NCBI GenBank assembly: GCA_964373795.1
Contig: CAYJVY010000002.1
Coordinates: forward strand, 54,207 to 86,206
Reading direction: 5' to 3'
DNA length: 32,000 bases
From: an uncultured archaeon
Lineage (GTDB): Archaea > Iainarchaeota > Iainarchaeia > Iainarchaeales > DATDZZ01
Shown here: positions 2 to 32,000 of the stretch, piece after piece
How positions within the stretch are numbered: the first letter of the stretch is position 1
Layout of the letters: each line of letters begins with the position of its first letter
Notes under the pieces: model-generated
Seen by the model: the letters and a program-made list of their open reading frames with translations, nothing else
Databases searched by the model: none
Told to the model about the DNA's origin: nothing
Translations under genes and position numbers: made by a program

Positions 2-1423
2 GCAGTAGATTTAACTATTTCTCCTTCACAGTTTGAATTACAACAAGGCTCTGAACGCGATTTAATGCTTAACTATTTTGTAAACTCTAATAAAGGCGTG
101 AAAACATTAACTCAAGTGAAAGAATTTGATAAAGTTAAGCTTGACTTTGGATTTAAAGGACATGAAAGCATGCTTTCTACGTCTTATTCCTTTCCTGGAA
201 GAGTAAAAGTAGAAAGGGATGTTCCCTCAGGCGAATATGAATTGAAATTAAGTGTTTTAAACCTTGAAACAAATAATGTTTTGGATTCTGAAACAATTAA
301 AGTAAAAGTAGTTGAAAAAGGAGAGAAAAATTATTTCACTTCTCCTGGAAAAACAATTGAACCAAGAATTGAAAATATTAAATTCAGTGAAAACAACGTA
401 TTGTTGAAAAGAAACGATTCAAAAGAGGTTAAAATTGATTTTGAAAACGCAGGTTCTTTAAGTAATTTTAGAGTGAAAATTGTGAACTCTTCAAAAGAGG
501 TTGAAGGAATTGCATCAAGCAATGAATTTGAAAACCTTTCAAAAGGAACTGCAAGTATTAAACTCGTGTCAAATCCTATTGCAAAAGAAGGAAGCCATGA
601 AGTAAAAGTTTTACTAGTTGACTTGGCTTCATATAAAGAACACTTACTTGGAACAATTAATGTAATAGTAAAACCTTTTTACAACCTTCAAACAAGCGTG
701 GAATTAAATTCAACAGAAGCCAAAATAGGTGAAACAGTTAAAGGAAAACTTGTAATTAAAAATCTTTCAGCATTTGATCAAACGCTTTCCTTAAATGGAA
801 CTCCTGAAATGGAATTTGAATCACAAAAAATTGAACTTGCAGGAAACCAATTGAAATCAATTGAATTCAAAGTCAAGCCATTCAAAGAAGGAGAAAACGG
901 TTTTACAATTAATTTAAACGGAGAAACTAATAGAATTGTATTCATTAAAGTAAAAGGATTAAAAGCAGGTATTTCAAGCACTGAAGACATTGTGAAGGCA
1001 TTTGAGGGAAGCAATATTGCTTTAATTGGATTAGTTGAACCTTCTTGGCCAATTGTTTTAGGAATACTAATTGCAATTCTATTGTATGCTTTATGGAAAA
1101 AAGAACAAGTAATTGAATTCATGCAAAGAATTCTTGGAAACTTGTTAGATGAATTTGTTTTATCTCCAGCTTTTTCAACTCAGTCTTTAAAACAAGAAAG
1201 CAAAGAAGTCAAAGAAGAAATTGAAGAAACTTCTGAAAAAGAAGTTGAAAAAGATTCTTCAGAAGAAAAAAAAACTGAAAACATTGAAGCTCGTGAAGAA
1301 AAAGAAAGTGAAAAAGAATTAGAAGAAATTGTTTCAAAAGAAATTGAAATAAAGCAATTAATTGAAGAATTAGAAGAAAAAATAACTGAAGAAAAACAAA
1401 AAAAATTAAACGAATTCAAATAA
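2..1423 (+). CDS. Cell-surface protein, 5'-truncated by the window edge: repeated beta-sandwich-like ectodomain modules, one C-terminal TM helix, Glu/Lys-rich cytoplasmic tail
   Basis: Frame 2 is open from nt 2 (AVDLTISPSQFELQQGSERDL precedes the first ATG at 65), so the true start lies upstream. Repeated ~100-aa strand-rich modules are present (YELKLSVLNLET..IKVKVVEKG; HEVKVLLVDL..INVIVKP; SIEFKVKPFKEGENGFTINLNG). There is a single hydrophobic helix (WPIVLGILIAILLYALW) followed by a ~100-aa E/K-rich tail and a TAA stop. Confidence 0.7.
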   Translation, partial: AVDLTISPSQFELQQGSERDLMLNYFVNSNKGVKTLTQVKEFDKVKLDFGFKGHESMLSTSYSFPGRVKVERDVPSGEYELKLSVLNLETNNVLDSETIKVKVVEKGEKNYFTSPGKTIEPRIENIKFSENNVLLKRNDSKEVKIDFENAGSLSNFRVKIVNSSKEVEGIASSNEFENLSKGTASIKLVSNPIAKEGSHEVKVLLVDLASYKEHLLGTINVIVKPFYNLQTSVELNSTEAKIGETVKGKLVIKNLSAFDQTLSLNGTPEMEFESQKIELAGNQLKSIEFKVKPFKEGENGFTINLNGETNRIVFIKVKGLKAGISSTEDIVKAFEGSNIALIGLVEPSWPIVLGILIAILLYALWKKEQVIEFMQRILGNLLDEFVLSPAFSTQSLKQESKEVKEEIEETSEKEVEKDSSEEKKTENIEAREEKESEKELEEIVSKEIEIKQLIEELEEKITEEKQKKLNEFK

Positions 1424-1485: not shown

Positions 1486-4400
1486 TTAAGCAGGGCAAGA
1501 AGAAAGCTCTTCTTTTGAAGGATTATTAATAAGCAAATACCATTTATCTATTGAACCATCTTCATTTGATTTCTTTAAAGCAACAATGTAATCCTTTCCT
1601 TCCTCTAATTCACTGAATACAAGTTCATTTCCTAAAGGGAAATATTTTACATCCTTTAAAGGTTGAACTCCTTGAGTATTAATTGCTACATCAATTTTAT
1701 CCTTATAATCATATACTCCTTGAATTAATTCAGTAAACTCTCTCATTGAATTAAAAGGAATTTCTTTTTCGCCTCTAGCCTTTAAACTCTCTAAATCTTT
1801 ATCTAAAACAGTTCTATTATAAGTATAACAACCCTTTGCCAACACTTTTCCTGTTCCACTTGCAGGCTGACCAGGTTGCCCTCCACTTGGTTGTCCGGGT
1901 TGCCCTGGTTGAACAGCAATTGGCCCTGAAACAGTGAAAGCAAAAGATTTAATCAATCCATCTCCTCTAAAGCATTCATATTGAGGATTAGTTCTATAAT
2001 TAAATGCAGTTGGACAAAAACCAAGATTTTGTAATCCTCTAACATCAATTTTTGACGAATTTTTCTCCCAATAACCAAAGTCTTGCAATGCATCAGCTAT
2101 TGCTGGATTAAATTTTACTTTTACTACTCCAAAATAATCTGCTGCAGGAAAGCCTCTAACTAAATTAACTGGATTACTTAAGCCTTCTCCACAAGAAAAA
2201 GGTTTATCAATAAAATCTGCTGCATTTTTTTTATCAGTTGAATAAAAAGTTATTTGACAAGACTCAATTAAAGGTCCTGGGTCGCCTTTAATCCAATAAT
2301 ATCCTCCAATTCCAAGTGAAGCTAAATCAAATACATCAACTGCATTCTTTAAATTAAATACTCCATATCCCGCGCTTTCAAGATATGAAAGATATAACTG
2401 GCCTTCTTCAATACAGCTTTGCACTAAATTAATGTTTTTACTTGCATTTGGATCAATAGAGTAAAGCAAATTTTTTGGATCTGAAACTAATGTCAGCCAA
2501 TCAGTTCCACTTTTATTTACATATAAATCCAATTCAGATAATTCAGAATTACTTGACTGAAATTCTGCTGTATTACATTTATATAAAGAATAAGCTCTGT
2601 CAGGCAAAGCAGCAACTGTTGCAACAACTCCTGCAGCAGCTAAACCTTTTCCTGCAACCCTTAAAACAGGAGTAACTGCTTTAACTCCTGGAACCGCTGC
2701 AATTCCTGCTCCAACCGCTCCAACTCCTGCCGCAGTCCATCCAATAGGTTTTGCAGCCCATTTAACTACTTTAACTGCTTTTCCAACCCTTGAAGCCCTA
2801 GCAACTACAGCCGCTTCTTGAGCTGTTTCAACAACCCTTCCTGATCCAGCTACAGCAGCTACTGCTTCAGTTGAGTTAACTGCTTTTGCAGCAGCAGCTG
2901 TTTTTCCAGTAACTTCAGCAACAGTTTTTGCTCTAGCAGCTGCTTGAGCAGCAACATTAGCCAAACCAGTTTCAGCTTTAATAATGTCATCTAGTTGAGC
3001 AACATTTTGAACTAAAAGCCTTGTTCCAGACTCAGTTTTATAATATAATCCAACATCATCTCCAAGTGTTATAACTTCTAAAGAAGTAACTCCTGCAACT
3101 CTTGCTTCTTGAACTGCACTAGATAAACCTTTTAATAGTGCAGGAGAGGTTTTGTTTCTCTGATAAAAATCGAATATATTTCTAAGCCTATTCAATCTAT
3201 CTAATTTTATTTCTGGAACTAATTTTCCTACATCTGCAACTGCTTGCACTGAAGGAGTTGCATGCTCTAATGCTTTTCCAAGGCTCACTCCTTCTCTTGT
3301 AACATCATCAACTGAGGAAAGAAGTAAAGTTCCTTGCCCTTCAGCTAAAGGAACTCCTGCAACAGGAATATCTAATACATGTTGTCCTGCTCTAACATAT
3401 AATCCTTGAACTTGTCCAAGCCTTGCTTCAAATCCTGCTTCTTGTAAAACAGTTGCAAGTACTTCCATTCTTTGAGTTGCCTGAGCAACATTTCCAGAAA
3501 ACCTGGAAAGCATTACAGCACTTTCAAGAGATTCTTCTGCAGTAATAAATCCCCTAGTAATAAAGTAAGTTCTTGCTCCAGCCAATCCAGGAGCTCCGGC
3601 TCTTTCTGCATCAGCAATTGCTTGCAATAAAAGCTTTGCTTCTTCTTTAATGAATTTATCTGAATGTCCAAGCAATAAAGCAGCTGCTCTTCTATATTTC
3701 ATAACATCAGTTGACCCAACAGAATCTCCCAATAATTTAGTGAATTTATATCTTCCCAAATTATTTAATCTAGTCATTTCCAAATTAGTTAATTCAGCTA
3801 CCTCTGGCACTCCATAAAAAGCTTTTGAAAAACTTACAGCTGCTTGATTAACAGCAACAGCTGATTTTCCAACAAAAACAGATCCAACTGGTTTAGAAGA
3901 AAACTTACTAGTCGCATTCCAAGAATTAATTAAAGATTCTTTTCTTTTATTAGTTATTCTCCACTTACTAGGAGCTTTTTTAACAGCTGAAACTGCTTCA
4001 GGCACTGAATCCACAACAGGAGTACTAACACTAGCTCCATTTAATATAATTAAGCCTTTTACTTTTCCAACAGAAACATTAACTTTTTGAGAATTCAATG
4101 AATGAGCTAAATCATCCATTTTATCTCCAACTTCAATTAATCTTGAAGTTGTTGCCTCCTCAACTCTTTCAACAAATCTAGGAACAATTATCTCTCTGAC
4201 GCCACCAGGTTTTGGAATAGGAACACCAGTGCCAGTCCCTCTTGACACGCCTTCAGGTGGAAATTCAATAGTAGGCCTTGTAACAGCACTTCTTGGAACA
4301 AATCTTTCAACAGTAACATCACTGCCTTTAGGAAATTGAATTGATGGCTTTTTTTGAGGAAACTCAATAAAAGGCTTTTTTCTAACTGCCCCTGGAGGCA

Positions 4401-5229
4401 CATCTATATCAGGCCTAGGCGTTGCAATAGCAGGAGTTCCAGAGGATTTGGCAGGAATAATAATACTTGGCCCAGTTCTTGCTGCAGAAGTAGCTTTTCT
4501 TGGAAAATGCTTTAAAGAAATTTGTTTCCATCTAGGCCTACTAATTGGTTCTGCTGCACCTCTATTAAATCCCCCAGGAGAATTCAAAATATCTTGATTA
4601 AGTGCATAAGCTCTTGCACCTAATGGATGGCTTGTTCCATATTCTCGAATTAATTCTCCGTTTCGTGTAAAAAGAGCTTCAAGTTTATCTCCAAAAGAAT
4701 GCTGGAAAAAACGAGCAACAGTAAAATCTTTTTCTGAAAAATTTATTGAATTAAATTCATTAGAAAAATTTTTACCTGAAGCATTAATAGTTGTCTCTTC
4801 TAAAGATTCTTCAATTCCATCAATTGTTGAACCAACTTCTTCAATATATGCAAGATCATCTAACACATTTGTTCTTTCATATTCTGCTGCAATTAAAGCA
4901 ATTACTTCTGGATTGTTTTCTAAATCAGTTCCAGCTAAAGCTTCCTGCCATTCAGAGTCATTTCGAATAATTTTTCTCCAAGCAGCAGATTCATCTACTG
5001 CAGTTAAACCTCCTGCAACAAGAGCAGGGGTTTCAAGAATTGATTCACCTGTGTCCATTGAAACTAATCCAGAGTCTTGAACTTGAATTGCTTGCTCGTT
5101 TTCTAAATCAATTGTTTTCCATTTAGAAAAAGTCTTTCCTTGAATACTTATTTCATCCTTTGCAACTCCAGCAAAAATACTTGGAGTTAAAAACAGTAAA
5201 ACAACAAATAATGCAAAAAATTTATGCAT
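1486..5229 (-). CDS. Giant secreted protein (1247 aa), unknown family; mosaic composition
   Basis: N-terminal Sec-type signal peptide MHKFFALFVVLLFLTPSIFAG. Pro-rich short repeats (KPFIEFPQ / KPSIQFPK / RPTIEFPP). Long Ala/Gly/Val/Arg-rich central part with two Gly/Ala-rich hydrophobic segments (PIGWTAAGVGAVGAGIAAVPGV; GLAAAGVVATVAAL). Cys-rich C-terminal region, a PGQPGQPSGGQPGQP linker, then a terminal ~140-aa domain. The ATG overlaps the upstream gene's stop by 8 nt. Confidence 0.8.
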   Translation of the reverse strand: MHKFFALFVVLLFLTPSIFAGVAKDEISIQGKTFSKWKTIDLENEQAIQVQDSGLVSMDTGESILETPALVAGGLTAVDESAAWRKIIRNDSEWQEALAGTDLENNPEVIALIAAEYERTNVLDDLAYIEEVGSTIDGIEESLEETTINASGKNFSNEFNSINFSEKDFTVARFFQHSFGDKLEALFTRNGELIREYGTSHPLGARAYALNQDILNSPGGFNRGAAEPISRPRWKQISLKHFPRKATSAARTGPSIIIPAKSSGTPAIATPRPDIDVPPGAVRKKPFIEFPQKKPSIQFPKGSDVTVERFVPRSAVTRPTIEFPPEGVSRGTGTGVPIPKPGGVREIIVPRFVERVEEATTSRLIEVGDKMDDLAHSLNSQKVNVSVGKVKGLIILNGASVSTPVVDSVPEAVSAVKKAPSKWRITNKRKESLINSWNATSKFSSKPVGSVFVGKSAVAVNQAAVSFSKAFYGVPEVAELTNLEMTRLNNLGRYKFTKLLGDSVGSTDVMKYRRAAALLLGHSDKFIKEEAKLLLQAIADAERAGAPGLAGARTYFITRGFITAEESLESAVMLSRFSGNVAQATQRMEVLATVLQEAGFEARLGQVQGLYVRAGQHVLDIPVAGVPLAEGQGTLLLSSVDDVTREGVSLGKALEHATPSVQAVADVGKLVPEIKLDRLNRLRNIFDFYQRNKTSPALLKGLSSAVQEARVAGVTSLEVITLGDDVGLYYKTESGTRLLVQNVAQLDDIIKAETGLANVAAQAAARAKTVAEVTGKTAAAAKAVNSTEAVAAVAGSGRVVETAQEAAVVARASRVGKAVKVVKWAAKPIGWTAAGVGAVGAGIAAVPGVKAVTPVLRVAGKGLAAAGVVATVAALPDRAYSLYKCNTAEFQSSNSELSELDLYVNKSGTDWLTLVSDPKNLLYSIDPNASKNINLVQSCIEEGQLYLSYLESAGYGVFNLKNAVDVFDLASLGIGGYYWIKGDPGPLIESCQITFYSTDKKNAADFIDKPFSCGEGLSNPVNLVRGFPAADYFGVVKVKFNPAIADALQDFGYWEKNSSKIDVRGLQNLGFCPTAFNYRTNPQYECFRGDGLIKSFAFTVSGPIAVQPGQPGQPSGGQPGQPASGTGKVLAKGCYTYNRTVLDKDLESLKARGEKEIPFNSMREFTELIQGVYDYKDKIDVAINTQGVQPLKDVKYFPLGNELVFSELEEGKDYIVALKKSNEDGSIDKWYLLINNPSKEELSSCPA

Positions 5230-5866
5230 TTTTTTCCAACTCCAGTAAAGGATCTACTTCTTTTGAAACCATTAAACAAGAATCAAAAACTCTGTTAAAA
5301 GCATAAGAAAAATTAGCTGTTTCAGTTGCAAGAGAATCAACATTAATTAAAGGCTTTTGAATTTTTTCATTAATAAAAACCTTTCCAAGTTTTTCATTCA
5401 ATTCATCCGCAGTTAAAACAATTTGAAGAGCCTCTTCTTCCATTTTATTTGTTTCATTCAAATCTTGACAAGCATCAATCAATTTTTTGTTTACAAGAAT
5501 AGCTATTTTCTCAGATAAAACAGATTGTTTTTTTTCCAACTCAATTAATTCTTTATAGTTTTTCACTAAAGATTCAAGTCTTTCATCAGATTTAATTTCT
5601 TTATTTTTTTCCAATTCATTCAAACTTGATTCAAGTTTAACTAAAGTGTTTTCCTCAAACTCAAATGCAAAAGAACTTAAAGCAATATTAAATCCATTCA
5701 AATCAGTGCCAGAATCACTAAATAAAGAAGCAAGTTTTTCAACTGCTTTGCCTTCACCTGAAACCGGTTTTTGCAATAAAGGTAAAACAAAAAAATAAGA
5801 AACAGCTAATAAAATTACTACTAAAACTGCAATTCCAAGTTTAGTTACATCACTCATCACAATCAT
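5222..5866 (-). CDS. N-terminally membrane-anchored coiled-coil protein (module copy 2)
   Basis: One N-terminal TM helix (LGIAVLVVILLAVSYFFVLPLL), then a helical, heptad-like E/K/L/N-rich region with 2 Cys (IDACQD, FDSCLM). It is a paralogue of 8936-9553 and shares the YFFVLPL motif and overall layout. Confidence 0.7.
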   Translation of the reverse strand: MIVMSDVTKLGIAVLVVILLAVSYFFVLPLLQKPVSGEGKAVEKLASLFSDSGTDLNGFNIALSSFAFEFEENTLVKLESSLNELEKNKEIKSDERLESLVKNYKELIELEKKQSVLSEKIAILVNKKLIDACQDLNETNKMEEEALQIVLTADELNEKLGKVFINEKIQKPLINVDSLATETANFSYAFNRVFDSCLMVSKEVDPLLELEKNA

Positions 5867-5882
5867 TCAACGATTTTTTAAT

Positions 5883-6242
5883 TTAACTTGAAGGACTTAT
5901 TCTTGAATTCAATTCATTTGAAAACTTTTTCAACATTTTACTCCAACAAACTAAAACATTTTCACAAGGCAGTTTTGAAACAACTAATCCAGATCCAACT
6001 CCCCCCACAGTTTTTGCAGTAGCAATAGGTGCTCCAGGAGCAACTAAAGTAGAATGTCCTAAAATAACTGTTTTAGGCCCACTAGAAGTTGGTGCTCCGC
6101 TTACTCCTGTTGATCCAGGAGTTCCAGGAGTGGTTCCACCTGAAACAATTGCTGTTCCACTTCCAGTAACTGGAGGAGCAAACACTAAGTCAAGTAATAA
6201 AATTCCTAAAACCAAACTCAAAAAAACAAATTTTAAATTCAT
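5883..6242 (-). CDS. Small secreted Gly/Thr/Pro-rich protein (119 aa)
   Basis: Signal-like N-terminus MNLKFVFLSLVLGILLLDLVFA, low-complexity GTTPGTPGSTGVSGAPTSSGP stretch, two close Cys (LPCENVLVCW). It lies 15-16 nt from both neighbouring genes in the operon. Confidence 0.55.
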   Translation of the reverse strand: MNLKFVFLSLVLGILLLDLVFAPPVTGSGTAIVSGGTTPGTPGSTGVSGAPTSSGPKTVILGHSTLVAPGAPIATAKTVGGVGSGLVVSKLPCENVLVCWSKMLKKFSNELNSRISPSS

Positions 6243-6257
6243 TCAAATCACTCTTTT

Positions 6258-8930
6258 TTAAGGCTGATAAATTTTTTCTCCTTTTTCAAATGAAAAAATT
6301 AAATGCATTGGCTGCAAGTCAGGGAATCTCAAAACCGCAACGTAATAGAAAGGCCCTTCTCTTGCATACTTTGGATTGCTTTCATCGTTTCTTTCAATGT
6401 CTTGCAATTCAAATGCAGGCCCTGTAAATCCAGTAGGATAACTAGTTGGAACACTAAATTTTACTAGATTAGGATTATTTGGATCTGTTTCACTGCCAAT
6501 TAATTGTTCTAAAGGAATTTCCATTGCTGGCTCGCCTTGAGCAACAAGGAAAGCTTTTCTATCATTTCTAATTTGATCTTGAGAATCTACTCTATAATCT
6601 AAATAACTTGTTCTACCCTTTAACTGAGGTGGAACACTTAATTTGAAAACCTTTAAATTAGATTTTGTTTTAAGCTCAGAATAATCTGTTTTAACAGTTA
6701 CAGGTACTTGAGCAGAACTAGCTATAACTAAATCCAATAAATTTGGATCAATTACTAGCAAGCCTTTTCCTCTAGGGCGAATTTCATCAGTGAAAGAAAT
6801 TGTTTTAGAAGTATCGTGATTCAATTTCACTGTAAACCTTAATTCACTATTTGGGTTAATTAAGTTTGAAACAGCATTATAACTAAACAACCATATTTCA
6901 AATTCAGTTGCAGTAGTTATATCTCCCACATTGATTCCATTCAACTGAGAAACAGGAATTTCACATCTAACCAAGGTATCTGTTCCATCACTTAGAGGCG
7001 TACTAATACACTTATTTTCACTAGAGGGATTTGAAGATTCTATACTCCAAATAGCAGAGTTAACAGGAGTTAAATTAACTCCTCCTTTTTCAGGCAATGA
7101 AACAACAGCAGCAGTACTAATAATATTAGTTAAAGGAATACTTCCACTTGCATCTTTTCCTAAATTAAATCTAATAGAATGTCCTGTGGGATGCTTGCTT
7201 TGCAGGAAAGAAATAACTAAACTAAATGGAGGACTTTTTTTGAATGCAACTTCGCTTTCATTTAATACATCTGCAGGAAATTCTTCTCCTTCAACTGTTG
7301 CTTTTAATTGAACTTTGAAAAACTCTGAATCAGTTGCTCCTGGTTTTGAAGTATGAACAGCTGCAGGACCTTCAACTCTTTCAGTTAATTCAGGAGAAAC
7401 ACTTAAAACAACAGTAGAATAATTAGAAGTCCTAGCAGCATCGTCTGAAACCTTTAATTTAATCTTAATTCCAACTCCACTAAACTCAAATGGAACATTA
7501 TAATCAAATGAACTCCTAGCAGAAGGAGATTTACTTGTTAAACTTGCAGGCAATGCAATAGGGGTTTCAGAATTATCTGCATTAATTGAATAAAATTCCC
7601 AATCAAATCTATCAACCCTAGTTCCTTGCAGGCTTTGCTTTACTTCAACATTAAAAGTTAAAGGCTGGCCTTTTCCCACGCCAAATATTTTTCCTTGACC
7701 ATCTTCTACCTCCCCAATTCCAACAACAATAATTTTAGCAGTAGGATTTTCTTTAAGTGGAGGATTTAAACTTCCTCCTCTTGCCTCAACATCCGCTGCA
7801 TTTCCTGCAAGAGCGTCTCTTTGATCACCTGCAGCTCCGGCAAGATTTGAAACAACTACTTTAAAATCAGTAACTACATTTAAAGCTCTTCCTGCAACTC
7901 TGTCAATTGAAATAGTTAAAGTATATTCTCCTGGAGATTTCTTCCATTCAGCAAGTGCCTTTGCACTTAAAGTCTGTGGTTTAGTGAAATCACAATTATT
8001 CAAAAGTGATTGAAAATCAAGGCTTCCACTAAAATCTAAACCTAAAACACCAATTAAGTTATCGTCGGAGCCTTTTTTAGTAATTTGAATTGAACAAGTC
8101 GAAGAAATTGGGGGAACACTAAAACCATACTTTGTAAAAGTTGCATATTTTGAAGTATCAAGAATTTGTTTATTACTTAATTCAGTTAAATCTTTTAAAC
8201 CTATAATAAATGCATTGTGACTTGCCAAATTTATTATGTTTTCAGCCGAAAACTTAAATTCAGACGAGCCTGGAGCAACAGCTGAGTCAAAAGACAATAC
8301 TTCTAATTTAAAGCTATTAACAGGATGGGCGGCAGAAGGATCATGAACTAATCCAGGTTTGGATTCGGCATTTCTAATTAATTCTTCTAATTTTGCAGGA
8401 TTTGCCATGATTTTTGTAACCCTAATATCTGTTTCTCCAAGACCAATTATTCCAGTAGCAGTTTCATAGCCTGCAGCTACATCTAAAGATAATTCTTGTG
8501 CAATAGATGAAACACCAGATCCTTCCAAAATCCTTCGATATTTTTCTTCAGAATCAACTTTAACTTTTTCATGAAGTTTATACCAATAAACTCCATTCCA
8601 AGCATAAGTAGTAAAATAATAATCACTCAAAGTTGTATCAGGCACTATCTTCAAAATTTTTTGGCCATTATAAAAAAAATCAATACATTGGTACTCAGCA
8701 TCATCGTCATCAATATCTCTTTCCGCCAAAGTAAAATCTGTTTCTAGTAGGCCAACTAATAAATTAATATTAAGTTTATCAGGGCAATCAAACATGTCTA
8801 AATTGCCAGTGGTCCAAGTATCTCCTGAATTAATTGTTATAGGGTCAAGCCTATCCATTTTTGCACTGATAACTGTTTGACTCAAAAAAAGCAAGAAAAT
8901 TAATGCAAGAAATATTTTTGAAAAATTCAT
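6258..8930 (-). CDS. Large secreted protein (890 aa) with Ig/PKD-like beta-sandwich region, unknown family
   Basis: Signal peptide MNFSKIFLALIFLLFLSQTVISA. An acidic DIDDDDAEYQC patch. A PKD-like stretch (RVDRFDWEFYSINADN..IKIKLKVSDD). No C-terminal anchor. It starts 5 nt after the upstream gene. Confidence 0.8.
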   Translation of the reverse strand: MNFSKIFLALIFLLFLSQTVISAKMDRLDPITINSGDTWTTGNLDMFDCPDKLNINLLVGLLETDFTLAERDIDDDDAEYQCIDFFYNGQKILKIVPDTTLSDYYFTTYAWNGVYWYKLHEKVKVDSEEKYRRILEGSGVSSIAQELSLDVAAGYETATGIIGLGETDIRVTKIMANPAKLEELIRNAESKPGLVHDPSAAHPVNSFKLEVLSFDSAVAPGSSEFKFSAENIINLASHNAFIIGLKDLTELSNKQILDTSKYATFTKYGFSVPPISSTCSIQITKKGSDDNLIGVLGLDFSGSLDFQSLLNNCDFTKPQTLSAKALAEWKKSPGEYTLTISIDRVAGRALNVVTDFKVVVSNLAGAAGDQRDALAGNAADVEARGGSLNPPLKENPTAKIIVVGIGEVEDGQGKIFGVGKGQPLTFNVEVKQSLQGTRVDRFDWEFYSINADNSETPIALPASLTSKSPSARSSFDYNVPFEFSGVGIKIKLKVSDDAARTSNYSTVVLSVSPELTERVEGPAAVHTSKPGATDSEFFKVQLKATVEGEEFPADVLNESEVAFKKSPPFSLVISFLQSKHPTGHSIRFNLGKDASGSIPLTNIISTAAVVSLPEKGGVNLTPVNSAIWSIESSNPSSENKCISTPLSDGTDTLVRCEIPVSQLNGINVGDITTATEFEIWLFSYNAVSNLINPNSELRFTVKLNHDTSKTISFTDEIRPRGKGLLVIDPNLLDLVIASSAQVPVTVKTDYSELKTKSNLKVFKLSVPPQLKGRTSYLDYRVDSQDQIRNDRKAFLVAQGEPAMEIPLEQLIGSETDPNNPNLVKFSVPTSYPTGFTGPAFELQDIERNDESNPKYAREGPFYYVAVLRFPDLQPMHLIFSFEKGEKIYQP

Positions 8931-8935
8931 TTAAT

Positions 8936-9553
8936 TTACACCTTCAAGTTTTTGCATTCAGTTTTAAATGACTCAACTTGTTTTTTTGATTCAGAGTTTT
9001 TTGATTCAAGGTTAGCAATACTTAAAGTTGATTCAGATACATTTAGCTTGGAAAATTCTTGAGGATTAGAAGACTTTAATTCATTTAATTTTGCTTCAAA
9101 ACTTTTTTGCGCGAAAACAAGTTTTTCTTCTGCTTGAACTGCTTTTTCTAAAAATGAAAGCTTAGAGCAAACCTGTTCATCAGTTGAAAACTCTGTTACA
9201 TCAAATTTAGCAGTATTTTCTTTAACTGCATTTGATTGTTCTGCTACTTCAAGTTTTAATAAAACTACTTCAGTTGTTAAACTTAAAGCCTTTCCTTCAG
9301 CGCTGGAAAGATTTAAAGAATTCTTAAAAGAATTTAATTCATTTTTTAAAGCAGTTAAATCTTTTCCTTTCACATCAGCTGCAAGAGGAGAAAAATTTAA
9401 TCCATTTTTTTGAAGCAAAGAATTCAATTCAGAAAGCCCTTCATCAAATGAAACAGTTTTTTTAACCATTAAAGGTAATACAAAAAAATACCCTAAAACA
9501 AGTACAACAATCACAGCCAATAAAATTCCTAAATTTTTAAACCGCGAATCCAT
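8936..9553 (-). CDS. N-terminally membrane-anchored coiled-coil protein (module copy 1)
   Basis: N-terminal TM helix LGILLAVIVVLVLGYFFVLPLM, helical E/K/L/N/S-rich remainder, 2 Cys (EQVCSK, KTECKN). It is the first gene of the five-gene operon. AT-rich TATA-like boxes (TTTTATATAA, AATTATATAC on the minus strand) lie at about 9600-9631 upstream. Confidence 0.7.
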   Translation of the reverse strand: MDSRFKNLGILLAVIVVLVLGYFFVLPLMVKKTVSFDEGLSELNSLLQKNGLNFSPLAADVKGKDLTALKNELNSFKNSLNLSSAEGKALSLTTEVVLLKLEVAEQSNAVKENTAKFDVTEFSTDEQVCSKLSFLEKAVQAEEKLVFAQKSFEAKLNELKSSNPQEFSKLNVSESTLSIANLESKNSESKKQVESFKTECKNLKV

Positions 9554-9666
9554 TAATTCAACTCTTTAAAGCTTTAAACTTTCAAGCATTAATACAGTGT
9601 ATATAATTTGATTAGAATACTTATATAAAAACCTAACCTTTTAGCGTTTGTTTTTCATTTAAAGAC

Positions 9667-9930
9667 TTAAAATTCAGTTTCATACACGTTTTTTCTATGC
9701 TTTACAGTTGCAATAATTACTTCATTAGAATTTGTTTTAATTGAATAAATAACTCTAAATTTTTCTATATGCAGGCTTCTAAAATTCTTGAAAACATTGC
9801 TTAAAGGTTTTCCAAGTTCAAGGGTTTGTTTTAGCTCTTCAATCTTTTTAATTAATTGAATCTTTAAAGATTTATCAATTTTCTTTAACTCCTTTAAAGC
9901 TTTAACAGAGTAAAATATTTCAAAACTCAT
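9667..9930 (-). CDS. Type II toxin, RelE/ParE superfamily (87 aa)
   Basis: Size and pattern are typical of the family: KALKELKKIDKSLKIQLIKKIEEL..LGKPL..FRSLHIEKFRVIYSI..EVIIATVKHRKNVY. Its ATG overlaps the upstream small ORF's TGA as ATGA. Confidence 0.75.
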   Translation of the reverse strand: MSFEIFYSVKALKELKKIDKSLKIQLIKKIEELKQTLELGKPLSNVFKNFRSLHIEKFRVIYSIKTNSNEVIIATVKHRKNVYETEF

Positions 9931-10103
9931 TTCAAACCTAGTTCCTTTAATACTTTTTCATGGTTAATTGTTTTTCCTTCTCTATGCTCTTTTTCTGCTA
10001 AAGCTATTGCCTTTAAATCTTTTAATAGCTCTGCATCACTAATTTGCTTTTCAATAGCACTCCTAGCAACTTCACTCCACTTAAATTCAGGGTGAATCTT
10101 CAT
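9927..10103 (-). CDS. Cognate antitoxin candidate (58 aa as read; possibly N-terminally truncated by an in-frame TAG)
   Basis: My hand translation gives MKIHPEFKWSEVARSAIEKQISDAELLKDLKAIALAEKEHREGKTINHEKVLKELGLK. There is a 4-nt ATGA overlap with the toxin. An upstream in-frame ATG at 10148 reads MVNIT-TAG-SVSKDLYEK before this Met. Confidence 0.55.
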   Translation of the reverse strand: MKIHPEFKWSEVARSAIEKQISDAELLKDLKAIALAEKEHREGKTINHEKVLKELGLK

Positions 10104-10324: not shown

Positions 10325-11089
10325 TTAAGGTACTGTAACCAATGCATCTTCTATTACACCCATTGCTGCCATCTGTGATCGAACAGATAGAAGATCTGGA
10401 CGAGTTTTCTTTAACTCCGTACGCAAAGCATCAAATTGTGTGTGTAAGTCAAGAAAACCTGGTACATCCTTTGCTTTCGAAAGTGCATCAAATTTAGCTC
10501 CTAATTCAGCAAATGCTGCTGGATTAAGTGCCTTTTTTACCATAGCTCCACCTTCAAGAACTTGCTGAACTGTAAACTGGCGGTCTCGAAGTAAGGCGCT
10601 AGCAGTTGTATTAATATTTTTAGAATGCTCTGGAAGCGCGTTTTCAAGTACTGAAGTTACTTCTTTAAGATCCCTAGCAGATACTTCTTCAACTCTTTGT
10701 TGCTTCATTGCAGCATTACCGTATTTACCAACATAAAATTTGTTAACACTTGCAAGTGCATCTTTAAGATGAACTATTTGGGCTGCTAAAGCCTCTCTTC
10801 TTGTTTCCCATTTTCTAATTTTTTTCTCAAGTCTATTCATTCTCCACTTAGGGAAAAACCAACTAAACCTGCCAGCTTGAACACCTGCTTGTCTAGCTCT
10901 TAATCTAGCTATTTTTTCCTCCACTTTAGCAAGCCTTTCACCCTCTAATTTTCCAACTCTTTCCTCAGTTTTTAAAGATCTTTTCTCTAATTGAGGTGCT
11001 GCTCTTCTTAATTCAGCAGCAGCTCTAGCTTTTCCAGCTTCAGCTGCAGCCGCAGTCAACTTTTTATATCGTTCCATTGGACGTCTCAT
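10325..11089 (-). CDS. Hypothetical Ala/Arg-rich coiled-coil protein (254 aa), compositionally atypical
   Basis: Strong SD (GGAGGAGAG) upstream of the ATG. Local GC is about 42% against about 30% in neighbours. The Ala/Arg/Leu-rich protein (AAAAEAGKARAAAELRRAAPQLEKR...) is unlike the Lys/Glu/Asn/Ile-rich neighbours. It is flanked by ~220-250-nt AT-rich spacers. Confidence 0.6.
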   Translation of the reverse strand: MRRPMERYKKLTAAAAEAGKARAAAELRRAAPQLEKRSLKTEERVGKLEGERLAKVEEKIARLRARQAGVQAGRFSWFFPKWRMNRLEKKIRKWETRREALAAQIVHLKDALASVNKFYVGKYGNAAMKQQRVEEVSARDLKEVTSVLENALPEHSKNINTTASALLRDRQFTVQQVLEGGAMVKKALNPAAFAELGAKFDALSKAKDVPGFLDLHTQFDALRTELKKTRPDLLSVRSQMAAMGVIEDALVTVP

Positions 11090-18736: not shown

Positions 18737-19234
18737 CTAATTTTTTATTAATTTACTCAGCAAAGTTTTAATGCTTTTTTTTAAAATCGGATGAATAAAA
18801 TTTGGAGCAATTTCGTTCAAAGGTTGTAAAACAAATTCTCTTTGATTCATTTTAGGATGAGGTACCACAAGCGAACCACTATTAATTGCTTCATTGTTGA
18901 AAAAAAGAATGTCTAAATCAATTTCTCTTGGCCCGTATTTAAATCTCTTTTTTCTTCCAATCTTTTTTTCCAGGCCTTGCAAAAAAAAAAGCAACTCTTT
19001 TGCACCAAGACTTGTTTCGACTTGGATTACTGCATTCAAAAAATTTGGCTGTTTTTCAAAATACATTGGCTTTGATTCAATAAAAGAAGATGTTGAAACA
19101 ACTTTACATTTTTCTGAAATTAGTTTAATTGCTTTTTCCAGATTTTGTTTTTTGTTTCCAAGATTTGACCCTAAAGCAATGAAAACTTTATTTTTCTTTA
19201 TAAAACTCCACCCCAACTGCTTTAACTCTTCCAT
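18737..19234 (-). CDS. folK: 2-amino-4-hydroxy-6-hydroxymethyldihydropterin pyrophosphokinase (HPPK)
   Basis: VFIALGSNLGN, GPREIDLDILFF, LVVPHPKMNQREFVLQPL. It ends in a TAG stop. The annotated ATG overlaps folB by 47 nt, so the start is uncertain. Confidence 0.8.
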   Translation of the reverse strand: MEELKQLGWSFIKKNKVFIALGSNLGNKKQNLEKAIKLISEKCKVVSTSSFIESKPMYFEKQPNFLNAVIQVETSLGAKELLFFLQGLEKKIGRKKRFKYGPREIDLDILFFNNEAINSGSLVVPHPKMNQREFVLQPLNEIAPNFIHPILKKSIKTLLSKLIKN

Positions 19235-19547
19235 TCAACACTTCAGGTTTTGAAATTCTTAATCCTACTTTTTTTGCTAAAGAGAATTCTTGAAAAAGTT
19301 TTAGCAAAATTTCATTTCCAAGAGATTCAATTAATGAAAACTTTTTAGAAGAAACAATTTTTTCAATCAAATTATATACATCTGAATAACTTATTGTGTC
19401 TTCAAGCTTTTCAGAAGAAATTGCTTTGCACGAATCAAACTCTAATCTTAAATCAATTAAAATTTCTTGCGTTCTCTTTTTCTCTTTAGGATTCACTCCT
19501 AGGAAACCTTGAAATTTTGCCTTTTCTAAAAAAATTGTTGTTTTCAT
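19188..19547 (-). CDS. folB: Dihydroneopterin aldolase
   Basis: 119 aa. FLGVNPKEKKRTQEILIDLRLEFD and ISYSDVYNLIEKIV..FSLIESL fit the FolB pattern. It has an ATGA overlap with the folP stop. Confidence 0.7.
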   Translation of the reverse strand: MKTTIFLEKAKFQGFLGVNPKEKKRTQEILIDLRLEFDSCKAISSEKLEDTISYSDVYNLIEKIVSSKKFSLIESLGNEILLKLFQEFSLAKKVGLRISKPEVLNGRVKAVGVEFYKEK

Positions 19548-20371
19548 GCTTTCATCACTTCATCAACTATTTGCATTGATTTTTTTAATTCTTTTACGTC
19601 GTGCACACGAACAATATTTGCTCCATTTAATACAGCTAATACATTTGAAGCAATAGTTCCTTCCAAGCGTTCATTAACTGGTGCTCCAGTAATTAATCCA
19701 ATAAAAGATTTGCGAGAAGTGCCAATCAAAATAGGACAATCAAGTTTTTTAAATTCTTTTAGATGCTTAAGCAAAAGCAAGTTATGTTGCACAGTTTTTC
19801 CAAAGCCAATTCCAGGATCAATTATTGCCTGTTTTACGTCATGTTTTCTTGCAAGTGAAACTTGTTTTTTCAAAAAATTGAAAACTTCTTTTACAACATT
19901 TCTATAGCGAGGATTTTTCTGCATTGTTTTAGGAGAGCCTTTCATATGCATTATTATCACTGGAACTTGAAACTTTTTTGCAAGCATAAGAATTTTTTTA
20001 TTTCGCAAGCCAGTTACATCATTAATAATTGTTGCTCCGTTTAAAAGAGCTTGTTCAATTACTCTTGGTTGAAAAGAATCAATTGAAATTGGCACAGTTA
20101 ATTCTTTTGACAGTTCACGAATAACTGGAATTACTCTATTTAGTTCTTCTTGAATCGTAATTTGTTCTGCAAAAGGCCTAGTTGATTGCCCTCCAACATC
20201 AATTATGTCTGCTCCGTCTAAAACCATTTGCCTTGCATGAACAATTGCTTTTTGTTTTGAAAAAAATTTTCCGCCATCAGAAAAAGAATTAGGAGTAACA
20301 TTTAATACTCCCATAATTAATGTGCGATTTAAAGGCAAAACAAATTTTCCTGCTTTAATTTCTTTATTCAT
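19544..20371 (-). CDS. folP: Dihydropteroate synthase
   Basis: GVLNVTPNSFSDGG, DIIDVGGQSTRP, IIDPGIGFGK. Confidence 0.9.
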   Translation of the reverse strand: MNKEIKAGKFVLPLNRTLIMGVLNVTPNSFSDGGKFFSKQKAIVHARQMVLDGADIIDVGGQSTRPFAEQITIQEELNRVIPVIRELSKELTVPISIDSFQPRVIEQALLNGATIINDVTGLRNKKILMLAKKFQVPVIIMHMKGSPKTMQKNPRYRNVVKEVFNFLKKQVSLARKHDVKQAIIDPGIGFGKTVQHNLLLLKHLKEFKKLDCPILIGTSRKSFIGLITGAPVNERLEGTIASNVLAVLNGANIVRVHDVKELKKSMQIVDEVMKA

Positions 20372-25759: not shown

Positions 25760-26059
25760 TCACTGTTTTACTTCCAAAGTTCCTTTTTTTCCTGCTGCAA
25801 CCTGTTTTTCTCCTCTGTATTCACTGCACCAACCATTTTTGATTACAAATTTGTTTCCTTCTTCTACTTGTTCGCATTGCTCGTTCCACAAAGTAACCTT
25901 TATTTCTCCAGTAGCATCTTTTGCAGCTAAATTGCAAACCTTTCCACTTCCACGATCATTTGCATATTGCCTTATTTCTCCTTTTGAAACTACTTCCAAG
26001 TCAAGGGAATCAAAATTTTTATTCACTTGCAAATCTTTTACTTTAGTTATTTCAGTTAT
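25760..26059 (-). CDS. Single OB-fold ssDNA-binding (RPA/SSB-like) protein; non-ATG start likely
   Basis: TEITKVKDLQV..LDLEVVSKGEIRQYANDRGSGKVCNLAAKDATGEIKVTLWNEQCEQVEEGNKFVIKNGWCSEYRGEKQV is an OB-fold pattern. It is paralogous to 29578-29946 (GDATGSVLLTLWDE..VEVGKSY.VENAY). The first 39 codons of the ORF-track model look non-coding. SD AGAGGTGG sits just before an ATA at 26059, and the exact start is uncertain. Confidence 0.55.
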   Translation of the reverse strand: MTEITKVKDLQVNKNFDSLDLEVVSKGEIRQYANDRGSGKVCNLAAKDATGEIKVTLWNEQCEQVEEGNKFVIKNGWCSEYRGEKQVAAGKKGTLEVKQ

Positions 26060-26284
26060 AAAACCACCTCTAAAAAAATAATTAGGCAAAAAACTATTTA
26101 AAAGCTTTTTCAAAAAAAGCTTGCAAAAACAGCCCCGCCAACTGCTTGTTTCAGCCTTGCAGGCTACTCGACACATTTAAAAAATCTCACTTCTTTTTGA
26201 CTTGTTTGTTGAATTAACCAAAAACTGCAGGCAAGGTGAATACAAATCCAAATACAATAAAATTAGTATTTCACTTGTGTAAGT

Positions 26285-29577: not shown

Positions 29578-29946
29578 TTGCAAGAAATAGCAAAACTAAG
29601 ACCTTTTCAAAAAAAAGTAGAAGTAGTTGGAAAAGTTTTAAGCAAAAACGAAGTAAGAGAAGTGACTTCAAAACTAGATAATTCTTCTCATCAAGTAACA
29701 GAAGCATTAATTGGAGATGCAACTGGAAGCGTGTTACTAACTTTATGGGATGAAACAATTGAACAAGTAGAAGTTGGAAAAAGCTATAAAGTTGAAAACG
29801 CTTACACTTCTTTATTCAAAAAATCAATTAGATTAAATATTGGGAGATTTGGAAAATTCACTGAAGCAGATAATTTAAGTGAAGTAAACGAGTCAAACAA
29901 TATTTCTGAAAAAGAATTTGATTTAGGCAGAAGAAGAGAATATTAA
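29578..29946 (+). CDS. Single OB-fold ssDNA-binding (RPA/SSB-like) protein, TTG start
   Basis: SD AGGGGGA lies 6 nt before a TTG. VEVVGKVLSKNEVREV...EALIGDATGSVLLTLWDETIEQVEVGKSYKVENAYTSLFKKSIRLNIG is an OB-fold pattern, paralogous to 25760-26059. Confidence 0.55.
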   Translation: MQEIAKLRPFQKKVEVVGKVLSKNEVREVTSKLDNSSHQVTEALIGDATGSVLLTLWDETIEQVEVGKSYKVENAYTSLFKKSIRLNIGRFGKFTEADNLSEVNESNNISEKEFDLGRRREY

Positions 29947-29947
29947 T

Positions 29948-32000
29948 TTATTTTTCTTCTGCATATAATTCTTTAACTGTTCCACCTAATCTAATCCAAG
30001 CTTCATGCAATAACTGTATTCCTTCATCGTATTTTCCTTGAGCTTCAAGTATTTCATACATATAAGCTCTAACTCCTATTTGTCTTTCATCTGTTTCTGG
30101 AAGCAAGCTTAAAGCTTCATTAAGGTAATCCATTGCTAAATTATTTTTCCAACCTTCTTTAGCAATAATTCCTGCTTCAATTAAATAATGCACTAATTGT
30201 TCTGGATTGCCTGAAAACCTTGCATGATGAAGCAAGTCTCCAATAACTTCTGCATAAACCTTGTCTTGTTCAAGGCCTGGTTCTACACTCATTACTTTGT
30301 TTTCAAATACTTGTAAAGCTTTTTCATGCAATGGAGTTCTTTTTTCACCTTCATACATCATTGAATAAGCAACTTCTTGAGTTAAGTCATGAGCAAAAAT
30401 GAAAGGCCTTTCACCGTTTTGAGAAGGCAATTGTTTAATTAATCCTAGTTCTTCAAGGAATACAAGGTTTCTATCCAAATAAGTTCTTTCACTTTCATCT
30501 AAAAGTTCTTTCAAAACATTTGCATCAAACTCTCTTCCTAATGCACTTGCAGTTTGAATAGTTTTTTTAGCAGTTGCAAGAAGTCCATCAATTCTTTGAG
30601 AAATTGTTGCTTGAATTGTTCCGGGAATTTTTTCCTCCATTTCTTTTAGTTTTACTAAATTAACCTTACACTCTTTTCCTTCTACTTGAATTATTTTTGT
30701 ATCTCTTAAAAATCCAAGCATTTGTTCAATGAAATAAGGAACTCCTTTTGCTTTAGAAATATGCGGCACTACTTTTTCAGGAATTTCTATTACTCCTAAA
30801 AACTTTTTAGATAAATCTAGTGAAGTTGCTTCATCTAAATTACTTAAATCTAATCTGTTTCCTTCATCTAAAAATCTATGAGTAATTCCAGGTCTTTGAT
30901 CTGCCCAAAAAATCACATTAAAGCCTTGCAATTCATCAACTATTTTGGATAAAAAGTTTTCAATTCTTTTATCCATTACATCTCTGTCTTTAACTGCTTC
31001 ATCTTTTGCATAATGCAAGTCCTCTAAACCCAAAACCAATGGAGTTTTCAAAGACCTTGCTTTAACTAAATCAATCAAAGTTGATTGAATTAATTCTACT
31101 CTGGCTTTTGGATCAATGTCTTTTACTTCTTCTAATTCAAATCCTAGTTCATCTAAAACTATTTTAGTTCTCAAGTCAACTAATTTTTCATCCGAATATT
31201 CAGGAGAAATTGGTTCAGTTAAAAGTTCTTTTACTTGTCTTGAAACCTCTGCAATAGCTTCTTCTCTTGATTCTCTACCAGTTAATTTAAAAATATCTCT
31301 TAACCATCCATGCAAAATAGCTGTATTCTTGTCTTTTCCATAAATTGGAATGCTTGAAGTAATTGCATCAAAACCTTGTTCGCGAAGCCTTTTAATTGCT
31401 TCAAATCTAATTCTAGATTTTCCTAGTCCAGCATCTCCCACTACATTGAAAAACCTGTTCTTTCCTGAAACAGGTTGAGCAGTTTTTGCATTAATTAAGT
31501 GTTCTAAAACATGTTTTTCTACTTCACTTAATTCTTCGCTTCTTCCAACAAATTCTGTTGCTTTTTCTCCAAACAAAATATCTAACTTGTTTCTGAGAAC
31601 TTCTCTTTTAACAGTAAAAATATTGATTGGCGCTGAAACTCCTTTATATTTTCTTTGCCCTAATGCTTCAACTTCAAATTCTCCTCCTTTAATTGATCTT
31701 CTAACTCTATCAGAAATAAGAATTTCTCCTTCTCCTGCGCCTTGCATGAAACGAGCAGCAACATTTACTCTGTCTCCGCCTAAATCAGGTTTATTTCCAA
31801 ACCAAGTAATTCCAACTCTTCCAAAATTGATTCCAGAACCTAAACGCAGGTTAACTGTTTCTCCAAATCTTTTTCCAATTGCATTAATTGCTTTATCCAT
31901 TTCCAAAGACAATTGAGTTGCAAAATAAATATCTCTTTCAGTTACTCTATCAGCTCCAAAAGTAATAAAGGCTCCAGTAGCCCCCATTTTTTTAACAAAA
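29948..32000 (-). CDS. Class III adenylate/guanylate cyclase domain + AAA (STAND-like) ATPase + TPR protein, 5'-truncated by the window edge
   Basis: The frame stays open to nt 32000 (..FVKK before the listed Met). Cyclase C-terminal half GDRVNVAARFMQ..GEILISD..KYKGVSAPINIFTV. Walker A VVGDAGLGKSR, Walker B-like LVLGLEDLHYA. C-terminal TPR-like helices (AMDYLNEALSLL..YMYEILEAQGKYDEGIQLLHEA). Confidence 0.75.
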   Translation of the reverse strand, partial: FVKKMGATGAFITFGADRVTERDIYFATQLSLEMDKAINAIGKRFGETVNLRLGSGINFGRVGITWFGNKPDLGGDRVNVAARFMQGAGEGEILISDRVRRSIKGGEFEVEALGQRKYKGVSAPINIFTVKREVLRNKLDILFGEKATEFVGRSEELSEVEKHVLEHLINAKTAQPVSGKNRFFNVVGDAGLGKSRIRFEAIKRLREQGFDAITSSIPIYGKDKNTAILHGWLRDIFKLTGRESREEAIAEVSRQVKELLTEPISPEYSDEKLVDLRTKIVLDELGFELEEVKDIDPKARVELIQSTLIDLVKARSLKTPLVLGLEDLHYAKDEAVKDRDVMDKRIENFLSKIVDELQGFNVIFWADQRPGITHRFLDEGNRLDLSNLDEATSLDLSKKFLGVIEIPEKVVPHISKAKGVPYFIEQMLGFLRDTKIIQVEGKECKVNLVKLKEMEEKIPGTIQATISQRIDGLLATAKKTIQTASALGREFDANVLKELLDESERTYLDRNLVFLEELGLIKQLPSQNGERPFIFAHDLTQEVAYSMMYEGEKRTPLHEKALQVFENKVMSVEPGLEQDKVYAEVIGDLLHHARFSGNPEQLVHYLIEAGIIAKEGWKNNLAMDYLNEALSLLPETDERQIGVRAYMYEILEAQGKYDEGIQLLHEAWIRLGGTVKELYAEEK

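Follow-up and report, generated by a model that had tools for sequence, protein, structure and literature searches.

We examined a stretch of 32,000 nucleotides (nt) from an uncultured archaeon (GenBank assembly GCA_964373795.1, contig CAYJVY010000002.1, positions 54,207 to 86,206 of the forward strand), hereafter the window, and within it five adjacent genes that appear to encode envelope proteins. In the direction of reading, they specify a small protein with a single N-terminal transmembrane (TM) helix (anchor A), a large secreted protein (giant A), a short protein rich in Gly, Ser, Thr, and Pro, a second small N-anchored protein (anchor B), and a second, still larger protein (giant B) (Table 1). 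DPANN archaea, to which the host of this locus probably belongs, depend on physical contact with host cells. To our knowledge, the proteins that make this contact are almost entirely unknown, and they change so quickly that homology cannot be used to trace them. The locus described here exemplifies this problem, as an intact, native, and tightly organized envelope operon without relatives among the billions of proteins searched.

The list of open reading frames (ORFs) agrees with an initial annotation of the window, which had placed five genes on the minus strand at these coordinates and with this spacing: 5 nt between anchor A and giant A, 15 nt between giant A and the 119-amino-acid (aa) protein, 16 nt between the latter and anchor B, and an overlap of 8 nt between the stop of anchor B and the start of giant B. 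Purine-rich motifs resembling Shine-Dalgarno (SD) sequences lie ahead of the gene starts. The 113-nt gap 5′ of anchor A is the only promoter-sized gap at the locus and holds two TATA-like elements, 47 to 76 nt upstream of the first ATG, while a hairpin followed by a T-run lies 20 nt beyond the stop codon of giant B. Given the tight gaps and overlap, the SD-like motifs, the single gap capable of holding a promoter, and the single hairpin with a T-run, it is plausible that the five genes share one transcript. The spacing and the flanking promoter-like and terminator-like signals thus bear out the description of one co-directional, tightly coupled gene set. Since ORFs of 890 and 1,247 codons cannot arise by chance at a GC content of ~30%, both giants are real coding sequences. 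The order of anchor and then giant is not a product of chance. Archaeal loci totaling 1.15 Mb contain an N-anchored ORF of 140 to 280 aa with a signal-peptide ORF of 600 aa or more directly behind it only at this locus, where the arrangement occurs twice, and in one unrelated case.

Table 1. Coordinates of the five-gene locus and its flanking elements (positions in the window)
Feature	Position	Strand	Basis or remark
Anchor A, 205 aa	8936-9553	minus	ORF list
Giant A, 890 aa	6258-8930	minus	ORF list
119-aa Gly/Ser/Thr/Pro-rich protein	5883-6242	minus	ORF list
Anchor B, 214 aa	5222-5866	minus	ORF list
Giant B, 1247 aa	1486-5229	minus	ORF list
Candidate operon promoter region, 113 nt	9554-9666	minus	TATA-like elements; putative function
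TATA-like element TTTATATA	9622-9629	minus	Read from sequence
TATA-like element ATTATATA	~9600-9607	minus	Read from sequence
Hairpin of 14 pairs, then T-run	1431-1466	minus	Candidate transcript end; consensus match only
RelE/ParE toxin of 87 aa (Pfam ParE_toxin, E = 6e-13) and RHH-type antitoxin of 58 aa, with overlap	9667-10103	minus	Directly upstream of operon

Anchor and giant proteins

Each anchor has one N-terminal TM helix, spanning residues 8 to 29 in anchor A (motif LGILLAVIVVLVLGYFFVLPL) and residues 10 to 31 in anchor B (LGIAVLVVILLAVSYFFVLPL). These hydrophobic segments score ~3.0 on the Kyte-Doolittle scale, and the rest of each protein is devoid of further hydrophobic segments. 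Both helices carry the motif LGI...(G/S)YFFVLPL, so that the single segment with YFFVLPL reported at the outset is seen in both. A BLASTP comparison of the two anchors aligned only their N-terminal 44 residues, with 17 identities (39%; E = 3e-4), and in a shuffle test of the N-terminal 33 to 35 aa none of 1,000 shuffles reached the observed score (z = 9.4). Since the signal-peptide N-termini of the 890-, 1,247-, and 119-aa proteins do not resemble that of the anchors, this similarity reflects more than hydrophobic composition. The two ectodomains (172 and 179 residues) aligned no better than shuffled sequences (z = -0.4 for local and -0.9 for global alignment). Each ectodomain contains two cysteines, Cys129 and Cys200 in anchor A and Cys133 and Cys197 in anchor B, at offsets from the TM end of 100/171 and 102/166, respectively, a match with a chance probability of ~0.007. 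Altogether, the N-terminal similarity and the matching Cys offsets make a common origin of anchors A and B likely. The traits they have in common are limited to the TM segment, size, composition, and Cys spacing, and their earlier description as clear paralogues, well founded for the N-termini and the two cysteines at similar positions, was overstated for the ectodomains.

Beyond the TM helix, anchor A is predicted to form an all-helical domain of ~175 aa, and anchor B an amphipathic helical domain. An AlphaFold2 (AF2) model of anchor A, built from the two-sequence alignment, was of moderate confidence (predicted local distance difference test [pLDDT] score of 68; predicted TM-score of 0.58) and places six helices of 7 to 38 residues, packed as a bundle and free of beta structure, behind the TM helix. 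In Foldseek searches with this model, the matches were confined to helical bundles of a generic kind (best E of 2.6 for the PDB and of 1.3 for BFVD; TM-scores of at most 0.39). A 3.5-residue hydrophobic periodicity was not significant in anchor A, and anchor B displays the periodicity of amphipathic helices in general. The model and these patterns support a helical ectodomain in both anchors; they do not support the heptad-like coiled coil that had also been proposed.

A set of proteins in which ~30 N-terminal residues are conserved while the remainder diverges (here, z = 9.4 versus -0.4) is typical of pilins, and both anchors have a Gly right before the hydrophobic stretch (KNLG followed by ILL, and TKLG followed by IAV). 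It could be imagined, then, that the anchors are type IV pilin-like subunits that prime or tip a filament displaying the giants, as bacterial minor pilins do with the PilY1/PilC adhesins of their own operon. Large anchorless adhesins encoded beside minor pilins are known (PMC13533445, PMC8833165), and some genomes hold several such minor pilin/PilY1 sets. The likeness lies in small proteins with only the N-terminal hydrophobic helix in common, encoded beside an anchorless secreted protein of ~1,000 aa or larger. Nevertheless, we found no FlaFind-type class III signal-peptide motif when the first 40 aa of the five proteins were scanned with the pattern [KRDE][GA][ALIFQMVED][ILMVTAS]{3}, and the anchors have Leu at position -2. 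Furthermore, the predicted domain is an all-helical bundle and not a pilin fold, and neither the operon nor the 32-kb window contains a match to PilY1/PilC, pilins, a prepilin peptidase, or the ATPase or platform of a filament machinery. Canonical pilins are therefore rejected on signal peptide, fold, family, and machinery within the window, and a more distant pilin-like role strikes us as very improbable.

Giants A and B have no similarity to each other. Both begin with an n-h-c N-terminus resembling a signal peptide, of the Sec type in giant A (MNFSKIFLALIFLLFLSQTVISA, followed by K), and both lack a C-terminal hydrophobic segment. Giant A is free of any other hydrophobic segment and contains six cysteines in three close pairs (49/82, 279/313, and 641/656). 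A single-sequence AF2 model of giant A was unusable (pLDDT of 31) and was left out of the fold search. Giant B is a mosaic by composition, with an N-terminal domain, a Pro-rich spacer, a central region, an Ala/Gly/Val-rich stretch, and a C-terminal part. The spacer contains three motifs similar to [KR][KR]P.I[EQ]FP (aa ~230 to 345; window ~4195 to 4542). The Ala/Gly/Val-rich stretch extends over 130 residues (aa 750 to 880; window ~2590 to 2982), is 60 to 65% A+G+V, and includes segments 838 to 856 and 858 to 876, whose Kyte-Doolittle values of 1.54 and 1.56 lie just below the usual TM threshold. A short basic loop separates these borderline segments, and the stretch resembles, in composition, a viral fusion peptide or membrane-inserting hairpin. 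The initial view of both giants as signal-peptide proteins without an anchor is thus upheld for giant A and for the termini of giant B, with residues 838 to 876 of the latter uncertain. The C-terminal part of giant B combines eight cysteines with a QPGQPGQP linker. Within it, aa 1204 to 1244 (window 1489 to 1620) matched XkdW, a Pfam family of small prophage PBSX proteins, at E = 6.6e-4 and 19.8 bits, below the cutoff of 24.6; this match is probably noise. Self-BLAST of the giants revealed no internal repeats, with a filter that was possibly too strict.

In the 119-aa protein, a hydrophobic segment at residues 5 to 23 is followed by Pro-Pro, with Pro as the predicted +1 residue, and two cysteines form a C-terminal pair (Cys93/Cys99). 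It formed a singleton cluster. A Pro right after the hydrophobic segment disfavors cleavage by signal peptidase. Given the Pro-Pro directly behind its hydrophobic segment, this protein, described at first as secreted, may either bear a signal peptide or be a third N-anchored protein whose anchor is left uncleaved.

All five proteins contain an even number of cysteines (anchor A, 2; giant A, 6; the 119-aa protein, 2; anchor B, 2; giant B, 8). Among the Cys-containing proteins elsewhere in the window, 5 have even and 14 odd counts (Fisher's exact test, P = 0.006). Since even Cys counts are typical of disulfide-bonded proteins outside the cell, they and the signal peptides support an extracytoplasmic location of all five products, the helical domains of the anchors included, as the initial annotation had assumed.

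Absence of relatives and variation between strains

Searches of Pfam, NCBIfam, PHROGs, and PADLOC returned nothing significant for the five proteins or their neighbors. Even at E ≤ 1, Pfam and NCBIfam yielded only subthreshold noise for the five proteins, while in PHROGs four of the five were without a match and anchor B gave only three matches, all weak and to functionally uncharacterized families (best E of 0.0073). Against PDB sequences, giant A had no match, giant B had a single nonsignificant one (acetolactate synthase, E = 0.41), and a profile of the anchors retrieved only two unrelated chains (E = 0.024 to 0.031). When giant A, giant B, and the two-anchor profile were searched against 5.8 billion proteins with word-seeded HMMER, only self-hits came back, and a full phmmer search of 1.84 billion cluster representatives with residues 48 to 1247 of giant B found only giant B itself. 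Similarly, the anchor alignment and the giants recovered no relatives when JGI metagenome contigs and IMG/VR were scanned by motif and tblastn, and tblastn against phage and plasmid records gave no match. Eighty loci around deoxyhypusine synthase, taken from GTDB representatives and reaching at most 72% identity in that enzyme, contained neither a homologue of the operon nor an anchor of the YFFVLP type and showed almost no synteny with the window. The five proteins are orphans, with relatives only within the same population. The initial statement that none could be placed in a named family is confirmed by these profile searches, and no hit to a well-characterized family emerged from the profile, PDB, or Foldseek searches. 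This orphan status may stem from very fast evolution of exposed proteins rather than from a lack of function.

Parts of the locus recur at 99.85 to 100% identity on four Logan contigs, assembled from three sequencing runs. On a 5.95-kb contig (window 7526 to 13476), giant A and anchor A account for all nine differences (P = 6e-5 against a uniform distribution). Six are in giant A, five of them nonsynonymous, and three are in anchor A, two of them nonsynonymous. On the same contig, the 3.9 kb that hold the toxin-antitoxin pair, deoxyhypusine synthase, and three further ORFs are free of differences. Two more nonsynonymous changes in giant A, the most strain-variable gene of the locus, come from a second contig. 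Overall pN/pS is ~1.26 (nine nonsynonymous to two synonymous changes), and an omega of 0.2 or less is rejected at P < 0.01, albeit on small numbers. Such a ratio is compatible with neutrality or with diversifying selection. Only one other assembly covers giant B and anchor B, and there both are identical to the window.

Furthermore, three assemblies all break within giant A. Positions 6004 to 7150 of the window are covered by none of these contigs, the gap extends from 6004 to 7525 in run ERR3478686, which has contigs on both sides, and one contig ends in a divergent 12-nt tail at window position ~7150. The common breakpoint region and the divergent tail hint that the C-terminal half of giant A varies between strains. 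We also considered that the operon might be the target of a diversity-generating retroelement. This was ruled out by the lack of a long repeat pair involving the operon, the lack of a reverse transcriptase in the window, and the strain substitutions, which are of mixed types and not specific to adenine.

It is possible that no functional pairing exists and that these are fast-evolving or decaying, lineage-specific envelope genes of a surface-protein island, with a TM motif left over from an old duplication and an adjacency that is incidental. Complete orphan status, a pN/pS compatible with neutrality, ectodomains and giants that are unrelated to their respective counterparts, and the presence in the region of three further envelope genes of another type, with C-terminal TM segments, are all in keeping with this explanation. 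On the other hand, ORFs of 890 and 1,247 codons have stayed intact at ~30% GC with their reading frames maintained, and an independent assembly contains giant B and anchor B without a single difference. Likewise, incidental adjacency would leave unaccounted for a rare architecture that occurs twice in tandem with tight coupling, the conserved Cys positions, and the Cys parity. We therefore consider a locus without functional pairing unlikely, though it retains more weight than the other alternatives discussed here.

A proposed tethering model for the anchor-giant pairs

We tentatively read the locus as a native, lineage-restricted envelope operon of a DPANN-like archaeon, with two anchor-plus-giant pairs in which each anchor would hold its partner in the manner of SlaB and SlaA. 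The envelope location of the products is well supported, and the holding of a partner by an anchor is plausible. Each anchor of ~200 aa would be kept in the membrane by its N-terminal helix, with a disulfide-stabilized helical bundle outside. The downstream gene, translationally coupled, would make a Sec-secreted, anchorless, disulfide-bonded giant (890 or 1,247 aa), which the anchor from the same mRNA would bind noncovalently and retain at the cell surface, as would be needed where neither an outer membrane nor a wall is there to hold it. The conserved TM segment may serve a common membrane function, such as oligomerization or docking, and each ectodomain, unrelated to the other, would have diverged together with its own giant, the fast evolution of exposed proteins leading to orphan sequences. 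Tethering appears to be the most economical reading because it would bring together two adjacent pairs of a rare kind, their coupling, the combination of a conserved TM segment with unrelated ectodomains, and giants that are disulfide bonded and anchorless. The fast variation in pair A, which mostly changes amino acids, fits a surface that is exposed and prone to interactions. The structure might be a general layer of the envelope or an adhesin for contact with a host. The analysis demonstrates the structure of the genes, their orphan status and native codon composition, the extracytoplasmic signatures, and the clustering of strain differences in pair A; from these and other sequence features we infer cotranscription, binding of anchor and partner, surface retention, and a role in adhesion or host contact.

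The known arrangement closest to this reading is the surface layer (S-layer) of Sulfolobus. The genes slaA and slaB are adjacent, and both products are poorly conserved in sequence between lineages. In this S-layer, a soluble SlaA canopy is held by membrane-anchored SlaB, a protein of 475 aa with three beta-sandwich domains, a trimeric coiled coil of 132 residues, and a C-terminal TM segment (PMC10903991). The operon resembles this system in that a large, secreted, anchorless protein and a separate, smaller, membrane-anchored helical protein are encoded by adjacent genes, a likeness that is less certain for giant B. In contrast to SlaB, the anchors are only 205 and 214 aa, with an N-terminal TM helix and a predicted compact helical bundle; two distinct pairs stand in tandem here instead of one, and the density of glycosylation sequons is not elevated. 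Pfam, NCBIfam, and PDB sequence searches revealed no similarity of the operon proteins to SlaA, SlaB, or other S-layer domains. Homology to SlaA and SlaB is thus rejected on anchor topology, size, fold, sequence, and ordinary sequon density. The operon lies outside the SlaA/SlaB family and outside any named family, as a variant of the two-component design of anchored surface proteins.

A second comparison is offered by Nanobdella aerobiophila, a DPANN archaeon grown in culture, for which surface proteins of ~1,000 aa, without an anchor or homology, have been proposed to be paired with separate anchors (bioRxiv 10.1101/2023.10.27.564410). The same study describes DPANN surface proteins as generally lineage specific. 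The anchors proposed for N. aerobiophila have a C-terminal TM segment, whereas those described here are N-terminal, and the operon proteins differ further in having no relatives of any kind and few sequons.

Several observations weigh against tethering. The initial annotation had taken conservation of the pairing in related genomes as one of its tests, and the outcome formally goes against it, as the pairing recurs in no other genome searched and no part of it has a homologue outside the same population. Its description of a duplicated module is only partly demonstrated: the anchor N-termini, Cys positions, and architecture agree with duplication, while the ectodomains are not detectably related, the giants are unrelated, and the modules as a whole show no overall similarity. 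The anchor is modeled, at moderate confidence, as a compact bundle and not as a long stalk. Charges flanking the TM helix favor an N-in/C-out topology in anchor A (+2 versus -1) and are neutral for topology in anchor B. The Ala/Gly/Val-rich stretch of giant B may form a membrane-interacting hairpin of its own. N-glycosylation sequons number 4 in giant A (0.4 per 100 aa) and 12 in giant B (1.0 per 100 aa), a density no higher than in the cytoplasmic proteins of the window and unlike that of typical archaeal S-layer proteins. Finally, a pN/pS near 1 would also result from relaxed constraint or gene decay.

Alternatively, the anchors may be membrane-tethered helpers of export or folding, acting as transient extracytoplasmic chaperones at the Sec translocon, with the giants then released or attached in another way. 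Membrane-anchored secretion helpers include YfgM/PpiD of E. coli and PrsA of Gram-positive bacteria. A YfgM-type protein is similar to the anchors in its size of ~200 aa, its one N-terminal TM helix, and its helical extracytoplasmic domain. A conserved TM segment with divergent ectodomains would suit proteins that dock to one machine in common while each binds its own substrate, and helper and substrate would be translationally coupled. However, YfgM and PpiD are general factors whose genes do not lie upstream of a giant substrate of their own, and the anchors have no sequence or fold match, no chaperone match in Pfam or NCBIfam at E ≤ 1, and no structural match. Helper and tether have the same anatomy and differ only in whether binding is transient or stable. 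We regard the helper explanation as quite unlikely.

An extension of the tethering model would make the locus a lineage-specific device for host engagement, in which N-anchored bundles present two giant effectors, a hairpin similar to a fusion peptide at residues 838 to 876 of giant B enters the host membrane, and giant A diversifies along with the host surface. If true, this would be a new archaeal machinery for cell-cell contact or bridging, unrelated to pili, S-layers, and known fusogens; we hold it to be improbable.

Orphan surface-gene clusters are common in DPANN genomes, and on present evidence the operon is also just one among very many of them. Its duplicated architecture and localized strain variation set it apart as a reasonable candidate for follow-up. 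If the pairing of anchor and giant is real, surface and host-contact systems that escape sequence searches could be sought by architecture, with an N-anchored helical protein and a giant secreted ORF behind it as the key.

Host and genomic surroundings

Housekeeping genes in the window encode deoxyhypusine synthase, agmatinase, a Trp/Tyr-tRNA synthetase, a tRNA-splicing endonuclease, FolK, FolB, and FolP, thioredoxin reductase, NikR, and a ZIP transporter, as well as what is presumably a thermosome subunit, identified by eye from the sequence. Deoxyhypusine synthase and the tRNA-splicing endonuclease have Pfam matches. Among GTDB species representatives, the nearest deoxyhypusine synthases (67 to 72% identity) come from an uncultured archaeon and from metagenome-assembled genomes (MAGs) of Aenigmatarchaeota, Nanobdellati, and Micrarchaeota. 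This supports a DPANN-like host, possibly related to Aenigmatarchaeota, and is consistent with the small-genome archaeon initially suspected.

The two large genes have a GC content of 34 to 36%, compared with ~30% in their flanks. GC at third codon positions (GC3) is 13 to 16% in the operon and 12 to 26% in the other genes of the window, and the excess in the giants sits in codon positions 1 and 2, so that it reflects amino acid composition. No integrase was recognized among the ORFs of the window, no long repeats involve the operon, and the 32-kb window contains no tRNA or Rfam element. Given the native GC3 and the housekeeping genes on both sides, the operon is native and not a recent import.

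The operon could also be viewed as cargo that a virus, a plasmid, or another mobile element integrated beside a toxin-antitoxin module, with products such as tail-like or entry proteins. A RelE/ParE-ribbon-helix-helix (RHH) module does adjoin it, the C-terminus of giant B bears the weak XkdW-like match, and the large genes exceed their flanks in GC. Set against these are the native GC3 and the codon positions that account for the higher GC, the lack of anything beyond the weak anchor B matches in PHROGs, the absence of matches in phage records, IMG/VR, and plasmids, and the lack of a recognized integrase or long repeats in a setting with housekeeping genes on both sides. The codon composition, the flanks, and the negative phage, plasmid, and IMG/VR searches essentially exclude a mobile or viral origin, to which we assign hardly any probability.

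The initial annotation had also placed a toxin-antitoxin module and a further surface protein at the flanks of the operon. Both are present: the RelE/ParE toxin and its antitoxin lie directly upstream, where the RHH assignment is a precomputed Pfam annotation on a contig of the same population, and the ORF of a 501-aa protein lies downstream. This ORF is partial in the window (2 to 1423, plus strand) and encodes a protein with a signal peptide, a C-terminal TM segment, and an acidic, Glu/Lys-rich tail. In comparison with contig L001, positions 1113 to 1123 of the window (plus strand) differ by two substitutions and by two 1-nt indels that compensate each other; together, these changes alter five residues (IEFMQ to MNLIQ) right after the C-terminal TM segment of this protein. 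Further envelope genes, convergent with the operon, lie to its left, and the locus is part of a larger island of envelope genes. On contig L001 (4581 to 9455), left of the window, an 877-aa protein with a signal peptide, a weak NEW3/Ig-like signal, and a C-terminal TM segment is accompanied by a 198-aa protein with a signal peptide, hints of an Ig-like domain, and a C-terminal TM segment. Together they form a small-plus-large pair of another type, with C-terminal anchors.

Other genes in the window are of separate interest. Upstream of the toxin-antitoxin pair, a 254-aa protein rich in Ala and Arg (10325 to 11089, minus strand; 15% Ala; isoelectric point of 10.2) is probably a coiled coil; its gene has the highest GC content of the region (39%), and it has no family match beyond weak SMC-like and FlaC-like noise. 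A compact folK-folB-folP cluster (18737 to 20371, minus strand), encoding HPPK, dihydroneopterin aldolase, and dihydropteroate synthase, represents a notable biosynthetic capacity in a DPANN-like genome. Two small proteins with an oligonucleotide/oligosaccharide-binding fold similar to that of single-stranded DNA-binding proteins are encoded on either side of the thermosome region (25760 to 26176, minus strand, and 29578 to 29946, plus strand), the first of which has an odd N-terminal extension that is Cys rich and basic. Lastly, a 679-aa protein (29948 to 31987, minus strand) joins the catalytic domain of an adenylate/guanylate cyclase to an AAA_16 (STAND-like) ATPase region, an unusual signaling protein for an archaeon with a small genome.

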